From Escherichia phage vB_EcoM_112, in the sequence record NC_024125.2: a stretch of DNA of 64,000 nt; one strand, given 5' to 3'. Numbering within the stretch: the stretch's first letter is position 1; the number at the start of each line of letters is the position of its first letter. The position numbers and the translations under genes are program-made. The notes under the pieces are model-generated. The model saw only the letters and a list, made by a program, of their open reading frames with translations. It ran no database searches and was not told where the DNA came from. Shown here one piece after another: positions 31,282-32,147 of the stretch.

Positions 31282-31611
31282 TCAATTAGAAAATAAATTT
31301 ATCCAAGATTGTTCTTTAATTAAAAATGGCTCAGAATCATATGCCATTAAACTTTGGGTAATTAATCCTTTAAAAGGTCCATCAATAAATTCCATGGTAA
31401 AATACGGAATTTTATTCATTAGCCGTGAATTAGGAGCAGTGCACAAAACTCTGCATCCTTTGAATACACCTTTTTGTAATTTGTATTGCTTGGGATAAAA
31501 TTCGCTTAAAATGTTGTTATTTGCCAAAATTTCAAAATGATTTACCAATTTATTTTTAATAGTTTTTGGCGAAAAATAAAGATATTCGAAAAGCTGTGTG
31601 TCTGTCATCAT
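31282..31611 (-). CDS. hypothetical protein
   Basis: Start at MMTDTQLF; ATGATGA overlap with the upstream P-loop gene. Confidence 0.45.
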
Positions 31612-32147
31612 TGCATTCCGATTACGAAAAACTGCGGACGAGTAATACCACCAATGCAACATTTACTATTACAGCAGTAGTGTACAGTGTCAATATGGAC
31701 GCTATAAATCTTATCCATATCAGGAGATTTGACAGGCTCATCAATTATATACAAAATTCGCGAAAGCGATAAACCTCTGAACTTACTTCCTTTATTACCA
31801 ATAAAACTGCGCACAGAATCAGTAAATAAACGAAAACGTATATCATCATTAGAATAACGCGAAAATTCCTTTTTAATGTTATTTGCAGAAATTTTAGCGT
31901 AAGCTGAAGTATTAGAAAGAACAATAACTGTTCCGCCATCATACAGCCAATTAGCAGCAAAGTTAGTCACAGCAATTGATTTACCGGATTGACGTCCACC
32001 ATCTATACGAAGTGTGCAGTACTGTTTAAGTAATTCTTCAAATGGCGGGATATATTCGTTTTTACAAATTTCTTCTACTCTAGCATCAGAATGGTGTGTA
32101 AAAGCATTCATCAGGGATAGATAAGGACCAGTTAAAAATGTTCTCAT
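31608..32147 (-). CDS. small P-loop NTPase
   Basis: Walker A GGRQSGKS and Walker B ILYIIDEP; C-terminal CC...CC cluster; 179 aa. Confidence 0.5.
   Translation of the reverse strand: MRTFLTGPYLSLMNAFTHHSDARVEEICKNEYIPPFEELLKQYCTLRIDGGRQSGKSIAVTNFAANWLYDGGTVIVLSNTSAYAKISANNIKKEFSRYSNDDIRFRLFTDSVRSFIGNKGSKFRGLSLSRILYIIDEPVKSPDMDKIYSVHIDTVHYCCNSKCCIGGITRPQFFVIGMQ

Follow-up and report, generated by a model that had tools for sequence, protein, structure and literature searches.

The vs.8 and vs.7 genes of a T4-like phage, a terminase-like ATPase core and its coupled partner, lie at their usual place beside a variable denV/ip segment

Between regB and the lysozyme gene e, phage T4 carries denV and ipII. 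Neither gene is present between regB and e in Escherichia phage vB_EcoM_112, of which we analysed a 64,000-nt stretch (sequence record NC_024125.2, hereafter the window). An earlier reading of the sequence alone had reported this absence correctly and took two small ORFs, encoding a P-loop NTPase and a protein translationally coupled to it, to stand in the place of the missing genes. The locus raises the questions of what these two ORFs are, which gene occupies the position of denV and ipII, and what the NTPase might do. The features of the locus are listed in Table 1.

Table 1. Features of the vs.7, vs.8, and Ip4 region (positions in the window).
Feature	Position	Strand	Description
vs.8	31608..32147	minus	179-aa ORF, single-domain P-loop (ASCE) ATPase
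vs.7	31282..31611	minus	109-aa ORF, phrog_2049
Walker A of vs.8	31977..32000	minus	G50-S57 GGRQSGKS, terminase-type RQxGK[ST] variant; read from sequence
Walker B of vs.8	31734..31757	minus	I131-P138 ILYIIDEP, catalytic-type acidic pair D136-E137
Cys cluster of vs.8	31656..31676	minus	C158, C159, C163, C164; variable loop
ATGA overlap of vs.8 and vs.7	31608..31611	minus	TGA stop 31608-31610 and ATG start 31609-31611
Leader between Ip4 and vs.8	32148..32287	minus	140 nt; in-frame TAG 32157-32159; hairpin 32246-32284
Ip4	32288..32761	minus	157 aa, internal virion protein; N-terminal targeting sequence MKTYQEFITEA

The source phage of the window is a T4-like Tequatrovirus, in which the two ORFs represent vs.8 and vs.7. 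A megablast search with positions 30900-32860 returned 828 phage records, with vB_EcoM_Maryam (99.8%), RB14 (98.6%), and T2 (97.1%) as the best matches, and both ORFs carry the annotations vs.8 and vs.7 in RB14, RB32, and T2. Their products share 98% protein identity with vs.8 (T4p119, NP_049732) and vs.7 (T4p118, NP_049731) of T4. Full-length profile matches were obtained to phrog_1488 for the vs.8 ORF (E 3.9e-79, residues 3-179 on positions 2-177 of 177) and to phrog_2049 for the vs.7 ORF (E 1.6e-53), and homologues were found in ~1000 and ~930 phage records, respectively. The PHROG matches, the homologue counts, and the dN/dS values given below establish that both ORFs are real genes. The run of minus-strand ORFs at the locus is the typical early vs-regB-denV-ip-e block of T-even phages. 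An Rfam scan of positions 30000-34000 yielded no match, and sigma-70 and terminator scans gave scores that were not above those of shuffled sequences, with no convincing promoter upstream of vs.8.

The gene order in T4 is regB, vs.3, vs.4, vs.5, vs.6, vs.7, vs.8, denV, ipII, ipIII, e, and that in RB14 is vs.7, vs.8, Ip4, e. From regB through vs.8 to position 32288, the window and T4 are colinear and share 96% DNA identity, and the neighbours on the regB side (vs.6, vs.5, and so on) and the ATGA overlap are common to both phages. Homology to T4 stops at 32288 and returns at 32730, within the part of the ip genes that encodes their conserved N-terminal targeting sequence. T4 holds denV, ipII, and most of ipIII between these breakpoints (~1.45 kb), and the gene upstream of vs.8 is denV in T4 but Ip4 in this phage. 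The latter matches DUF7412 (Pfam, E 3e-95) and phrog_3155 ('internal virion protein', E 2e-101), and the same 157-aa gene is annotated as Ip4 or ipIV in RB14, RB32, and T2. Given the T4 gene order and the colinearity, vs.8 and vs.7 are T4's own pair in its usual place and Ip4 is the real replacement: a single Ip4 gene, not vs.8 and vs.7, substitutes for the denV-ipII-ipIII segment. The exchange is bounded on the left by a conserved hairpin that lies shortly after the Ip4 stop codon, upstream of vs.8, and on the right by the conserved capsid-targeting sequence with which the ip genes begin (5' end).

The view that the pair stands in place of denV and ipII fails on this comparison, since vs.8 and vs.7 occupy this position in T4 too, immediately downstream of denV. 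Replacement of denV and ipII by a novel P-loop gene pair would agree with the absence of both genes and with the location of the pair between regB and e. It is nevertheless exceedingly improbable: T4 has the near-identical pair in the identical position as well as denV and ipII, both breakpoints lie outside the pair with Ip4 as the incoming DNA, and in some relatives, such as phiD1 and teqhad, vs.8, denV, and Ip4 occur together. Variation of the denV/ip segment is a common polymorphism. T2, RB14, and RB32 have the order vs.8, Ip4, e found here at 97-99% DNA identity, the arrangement of the window is unbroken over at least 80% of the query in 308 phage records, and phiD1, teqhad, and PhiZZ6 have an extra 390 bp holding denV.

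A tblastn search with T4 DenV found no match in the 64-kb window (best E 3.8) and none in positions 1-65.9 kb and 93-165.4 kb of RB14, segments which together with the window span the whole of an RB14-type genome. The positive controls T4, RZ, and PM2 were all matched. This suggests that denV was likely lost rather than relocated, with the close relative RB14 standing in for the genome outside the window. The sequence-only reading had named two findings that together would tell against it, the pair at the same place in T4 and denV elsewhere in the genome; the pair is at that place in T4, and denV was not found elsewhere in the window or in the RB14 segments searched.

The T4 annotation of vs.8 has 219 aa, that is, a 40-aa N-terminal extension relative to the 179 aa found here. 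The extension frame is closed in the window by the in-frame TAG at 32157-32159 and in RB14 by a 1-nt indel (frameshift), and T4 has a 9-nt duplication there. Lengths in the family, and that of the PHROG profile, fall between 173 and 181 residues. The true start of vs.8 is most likely the ATG at 32147, and the reference start in T4 is probably 40 codons too far upstream. If the ATG at 32147 is correct, the 140 nt upstream of it form a conserved leader. This leader as a whole folds no better than shuffled sequences (z -0.2), and the only element in its centroid structure is the hairpin, which falls exactly on the left edge of the cassette exchange.

The vs.8 protein consists of one free-standing P-loop ATPase domain and belongs to the helicase/terminase (ASCE) class. 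When 1.84 billion representative proteins were searched exhaustively with HMMER, 41 relatives emerged, all of 41-259 aa and with no terminase among them, and 35 sequences drawn from these relatives made up the family alignment. [quoted passage not shown] They provide both hallmarks of ASCE P-loop proteins, a Walker A of the form GxxxxGK[ST] and a Walker B of the form hhhhD with a catalytic Glu. R113 (33/35), R124 (31/35), G125 (32/35), G177 (32/35), and Q179 (30/35) are also conserved, and active-site residues are kept in members down to 20-40% identity. AlphaFold2 modelling improved from a pLDDT of 52 with 17 close homologues to a pLDDT of 88.5 and a pTM of 0.86 with the 35-sequence alignment, and the predicted structure contains a parallel sheet of the RecA/helicase/terminase type. 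Foldseek returned only generic P-loop matches for the pLDDT-52 model, and for the better model gave weaker support, with phi29 gp16 and the P74-26 terminase ATPase among the matches listed. Pfam gave a weak AAA_14 match to the vs.8 of the window (E 0.014), and 29 of the 35 members matched AAA_14 when scanned one by one, each weakly. PADLOC reported only a weak HerA match, and NCBIfam had no match for vs.8.

Within this class, structure did not separate terminase from helicase, and the sequence motifs favour terminase. The PHROG profile for the terminase large subunit (phrog_2) matched vs.8 with E 6.4e-6. Terminase_6N reached E 0.085 on the vs.8 of the window (12.9 bits vs the Pfam cut-off of 22), and 20 of the 35 members matched it, each weakly (best E 6.8e-5). 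An hhalign comparison based on the 35-sequence alignment placed vs.8 residues 37-143 on gp17 residues 147-262 (Prob 82%, E 1.1e-5). In this register GRQSGKS falls on SRQLGKT of gp17 (S161-T167), RG on RG, and IIDEP on YIDEC (252-257, which holds D255-E256), so that the Walker motifs do align with a P-loop family, as the earlier reading needed, with both in register with those of gp17. A PDB search with the 35-sequence profile placed three gp17 crystal sequences within the top four matches (E ~0.02-0.04); gp17 surfaced only with this profile and was not found in single-sequence and shallow-profile PDB searches. Judged by these profile comparisons, the ATPase core of gp17 appears to be the closest relative of vs.8 with a known function. 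The vs.8 family is narrow and its tie to terminases remote.

The comparison with gp17 indicates what vs.8 keeps and lacks. It shares the Walker A arginine (xRQxGK[ST]) with the gp17 ATPase domain (N-subdomain I; PDB 2o0h, 3cpe) and additionally keeps the Asp-Glu pair of Walker B along with two other conserved arginines. However, gp17 has 610 aa and vs.8 has 179 aa, and the gp16-binding N-terminal region, the lid subdomain, and the C-terminal RNase H-like nuclease domain of gp17 are all absent from vs.8. By alignment register, the adenine-binding Gln of gp17 is replaced by I33. The TTT coupling C-motif is replaced by GMQ: the vs.8 chain ends with FFVIGMQ and nothing follows, with this strand matched to KIIITTT of gp17 from the order of secondary-structure elements. 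In addition, vs.8 is early and not needed for growth whereas gp17 is late. We conclude that vs.8 is a terminase-like ATPase core, not a terminase. It would bind and probably hydrolyse ATP, and alone would be unable to package, translocate, or cut DNA.

Other assignments for vs.8 fared less well. A nucleotide kinase was rejected because its Walker A begins only at residue 50 and its Walker B carries the DE pair; in the PDB profile search, uridine-cytidine kinases reached only E ~0.3, and there was no kinase among the structural matches listed. The earlier reading had likewise preferred a RecA- or helicase-like core over a nucleotide kinase. Compared with the RecA1 domains of SF2 helicases (DEAD-box DDX1, Mfd, RIG-I), vs.8 lacks the second RecA-like domain and motifs Ia, Ib, and III-VI, and by sequence profile it is closer to terminase, AAA_14, and AAA_30 than to DEAD. 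The C-terminal CC...CC cluster that had been pointed out does contain four cysteines, but these are not conserved across the family. Ten of the 35 members have C158, the other Cys positions are mostly gaps, and the cluster is missing from divergent homologues. It lies in the sole low-confidence loop of the model (pLDDT ~58). Since the cysteines are not conserved and the loop is of low confidence, we rejected a Cys4 zinc-binding site. A Pfam conotoxin match of vs.8 was below the cut-off and reflects the cysteine pattern only.

Turning to the partner gene, the phrog_2049 profile matches from residue 18, which indicates that the 109-aa start of vs.7 is right and the 126-aa reading of the ORF is wrong. 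PF26834 is present (precomputed Pfam) on 27 of 27 vs.7 homologues, a Pfam scan of vs.7 with a Pfam set that does not contain this family gave no match, and the vs.7 family is restricted to T4-like phages. No PDB relative of vs.7 was found by sequence. The conserved core of the protein contains two copies of the motif h-x-F-x-x-G-P-F-K-G, and hhalign between the two halves gave E 2.8e-6. We also asked whether vs.7 might supply the downstream portion of the gp17 ATPase domain that vs.8 lacks (CTAPN vs TTTPNG), and rejected the idea because hhalign detected no similarity.

The stop/start overlap of the two genes sits in the string ATGATGA, as had been described, and the coupling is conserved over six genera. 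The 4-nt overlap is also found in T4, T2, RB69 (Mosigvirus), Klebsiella K65_evo10, Enterobacter EnC15 (Karamvirus), and E. coli RZ (Gaprivervirus), and Pectobacterium PM2 (Mosugukvirus) has a 1-nt overlap, so that an overlap is retained in six Tevenvirinae genera including that of the window. It persists where protein identity has fallen to 34-50% and where the neighbouring genes differ. The coupling of vs.8 to vs.7 is real and conserved. Four more divergent vs.8 homologues from distant T4-like phages have no adjoining vs.7, including one between gene 39 and rIIA, one near an Acb1 gene, and one which is syntenic with T4 and is followed by a vs.5-like gene. A 75-aa gene after one vs.8 homologue was considered as a short vs.7 and rejected, as its sole match is to the vs.5-like tail of a database entry that is a fusion. 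The absence of vs.7 beside distant vs.8 homologues, and the retention of vs.7 without vs.8 in T2, indicate that the partnership is not obligatory.

Both genes are under purifying selection: comparisons free of saturation gave dN/dS of 0.09-0.11 for vs.8 and 0.03-0.29 for vs.7. In T2, vs.8 is a pseudogene with two 2-bp deletions and vs.7 is intact. Seven T2-type records have an identical shortened vs.8 match length, and in T2 record PV648364 the vs.8 tblastn match is split in three pieces; this concordance suggests that the breakage is not a sequencing error. In T4, vs.7 and vs.8 are early at the RNA and protein level (PMC9697503, supplement). Knock-down of either gene by CRISPRi-ART left fitness unaffected (PMC11879866, supplement), and engineered Tequatrovirus phages tolerate a ~7 kb deletion between pin and vs.7 (PMC10869271). 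Both vs.8 and vs.7 are apparently dispensable. The listed vs.8 guides, at 64,887-64,937, correspond to the annotated T4 start, ~120 nt upstream of the likely true start. As they target a start that is probably not real, the negative knock-down result for vs.8 is weak, and the probable annotation error in T4 undercuts the published finding.

A link between vs.8 and immunity comes from a preprint of May 2026 (bioRxiv 10.64898/2026.04.30.721860), in which vs.8 emerged from an AlphaFold 3 screen of T4 proteins against EcAvs2. There it is described as an uncharacterised ATPase-like protein with Walker A and B motifs that is homologous to the T4 terminase ATPase domain. Its co-expression with EcAvs2 was toxic, the AlphaFold 3 model puts vs.8 and ATP into the terminase pocket, and a possible anti-defence role was suggested. 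The terminase likeness found here was reached independently and agrees with that description. Two other non-terminase activators of Avs2, Ksap1 and Ksap2 (PMC11564622, bioRxiv 10.64898/2026.04.30.721860), are, like vs.8, small lineage-restricted phage proteins, and all three have been reported as similar to the terminase ATPase sheet and as activators of an Avs2 sensor. Ksap1 and Ksap2 belong to phages of other groups (Dhillonvirus and others). For vs.8, the evidence of activation is toxicity on co-expression only, not infection. In the same gene block, vs.3 is the anti-Thoeris sponge TadIV-1 (PMC13243611).

Because of the EcAvs2 toxicity, the dispensability of vs.8, and its neighbourhood of accessory and counter-defence genes, we propose a role in immunity. 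The most likely role of vs.8, which we put forward tentatively, may be an accessory one in the interplay between phage and host immunity, as a terminase look-alike. The protein is made early, on one message with vs.7, and the stop/start overlap would favour equimolar production; the shared message and the overlap suggest that, in enterobacterial T-even phages, the two probably work together as a complex. Loaded with ATP, vs.8 would resemble the terminase ATPase and engage terminase-directed host sensors. The reported activation of EcAvs2 by vs.8 argues against a simple decoy for that sensor. A more elaborate version, which we regard as speculative and rather unlikely, would have vs.8 as the ATP-loaded mimic and vs.7 as an adaptor in an early module that neutralises or misdirects terminase sensors (Avs1-3, Upx, and others), with some Avs2 variants since triggered by vs.8 and with loss of vs.8, as in T2, as an escape. 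For the account as a whole, in identity, fold, and mechanism, we have high confidence that it is the best explanation of the locus.

Next in likelihood, if somewhat doubtful, comes the reading of vs.8 as a functional enzyme that serves nucleic-acid metabolism or controls packaging and whose recognition by Avs2 would be incidental. It could form rings or filaments like isolated terminase and phi29-type packaging ATPase domains, with vs.7 as a substrate adaptor and with phage or host DNA or RNA, or gp16, gp17, or gp20, as targets. The conservation of the full catalytic set (Walker A Lys and Arg, Walker B Asp-Glu), the availability of R113 and R124 as possible trans-fingers, the purifying selection on vs.8, a fold common to helicases and packaging motors, and the presence of the nucleic-acid enzymes regB and denV among its T4 neighbours would all suit such an enzyme. 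However, vs.8 has no DNA- or RNA-binding, lid, or second RecA-like domain, it is expressed early while packaging is late, and vs.7 resembles neither gp17 nor any protein of solved structure. The dispensability of vs.8 in the laboratory (T2 pseudogene, and a neutral knock-down subject to the guide-position caveat) also speaks against an enzyme of this kind.

Dispensability could also be read as decay, with vs.8 as a functionless remnant left when part of the terminase gene was duplicated: compared with gp17 it is truncated, it is broken in T2, and it can be knocked down without a fitness effect. But a dN/dS of ~0.1 and an active site conserved down to 20-40% identity, together with detection of the protein early in T4 infection and retention of the gene in ~1000 sequenced phages, make a remnant very unlikely.

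The terminase-like nature of vs.8, both genes, and the cassette polymorphism were already known: vs.8 and vs.7 have been in the T4 catalogue for decades, and the denV/ip variants are in the annotated genomes of T2, RB14, and RB32. For our preferred reading, vs.8 as a terminase look-alike in phage-host immunity, two observations matter. As its vs.8 is inactivated, T2 provides a natural control for triggering of Avs2 by vs.8 during infection. The vs.7 gene is absent from the text of the preprint (bioRxiv 10.64898/2026.04.30.721860), and its coupling to vs.8 over six genera means that it merits inclusion in work on Avs2.

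The terminase-like ATPase gene vs.8 (window 31608-32147) is disrupted in T2, where two distinct 2-bp deletions, at about codons 31 and 114, interrupt the corresponding region (LC348380, 1009-1680) and the annotation covers no more than a fragment of 110 aa. vs.7 is intact beside the disrupted gene, and the same shortened vs.8 match was found in seven T2-type records. T2 is a natural vs.8 knock-out.

The T4 reference (NC_000866) annotates vs.8 as a protein of 219 aa, including a 40-codon N-terminal extension (T4 64793-64912). In the window an in-frame TAG (32157-32159) closes off these codons, and in RB14 a 1-nt indel does so; members of the vs.8 family are approximately 175-180 aa long. 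The guides listed for the CRISPRi-ART knock-down screen of T4 (64,887-64,937) target the annotated vs.8 start (PMC11879866), and the "Not Fit" call for T4 vs.8 may be uninformative for this reason.

The conserved core of vs.7 (window 31282-31611, minus strand) contains the motif h-x-F-x-x-G-P-F-K-G twice (residues 43-52 and 73-82), and the two halves align with each other (hhalign probability 88%, E 2.8e-6). The sequence suggests that vs.7 is a small beta-rich domain that has been internally duplicated. The vs.7 neighbour is absent at all four divergent vs.8 homologues from metagenomic T4-like contigs. Gene 39 (topoisomerase) and rIIA flank one of these homologues, another has an Acb1 (anti-CBASS) gene in its vicinity, and apparent tRNA genes come after a third; one retains T4 synteny, but a vs.5-like gene comes next.

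Locations of features around vs.7 and vs.8 and of divergent vs.8 homologues
Feature	Location	Strand	Remarks
Conserved hairpin	window 32246-32284	minus	CCUCAUG-AUUC-UAUGAGG within GGGAA/UUCCC
Counterpart of T4 vs.8 N-terminal extension	window 32148-32287	minus	
Second copy of internal-protein capsid-targeting sequence	window 40628-40684	minus	
vs.6	window 30912-31274	minus	directly downstream of vs.7
T4 vs.3 homologue	window 30154-30432	minus	
Divergent vs.8 homologues, metagenomic T4-like contigs	L016 3001-3501; L017 2501-3046; L019 2501-3028; L020 2501-3013		

GenBank naming of vs.7 and vs.8 homologues is inconsistent between records. Some label them "endoribonuclease" or "RegB", names probably transferred from the nearby regB, while others (JLBYU22, Roth68) label vs.8 "terminase large subunit".

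The conserved hairpin directly follows the stop codon of the internal virion protein gene Ip4 and, in T4, that of denV; no T-run follows it. The break in homology to T4 coincides with it exactly, so the hairpin could be the marker of a recombination boundary or act in RNA processing or stability. The second capsid-targeting sequence is identical to ipII and ipIII at 10 of its first 11 residues, and is presumably the ipI-type locus of phage vB_EcoM_112.

The product of vs.6 is an autonomous glycyl-radical cofactor similar to GrcA/YfiD (Pfam Gly_radical, E 2.8e-18), with 99% identity to T4 vs.6. T4 vs.3 was identified in a 2026 paper (PMC13243611) as the type IV Thoeris signal sponge TadIV-1, and its homologue here lies in the same early block as vs.7, three genes downstream of it.
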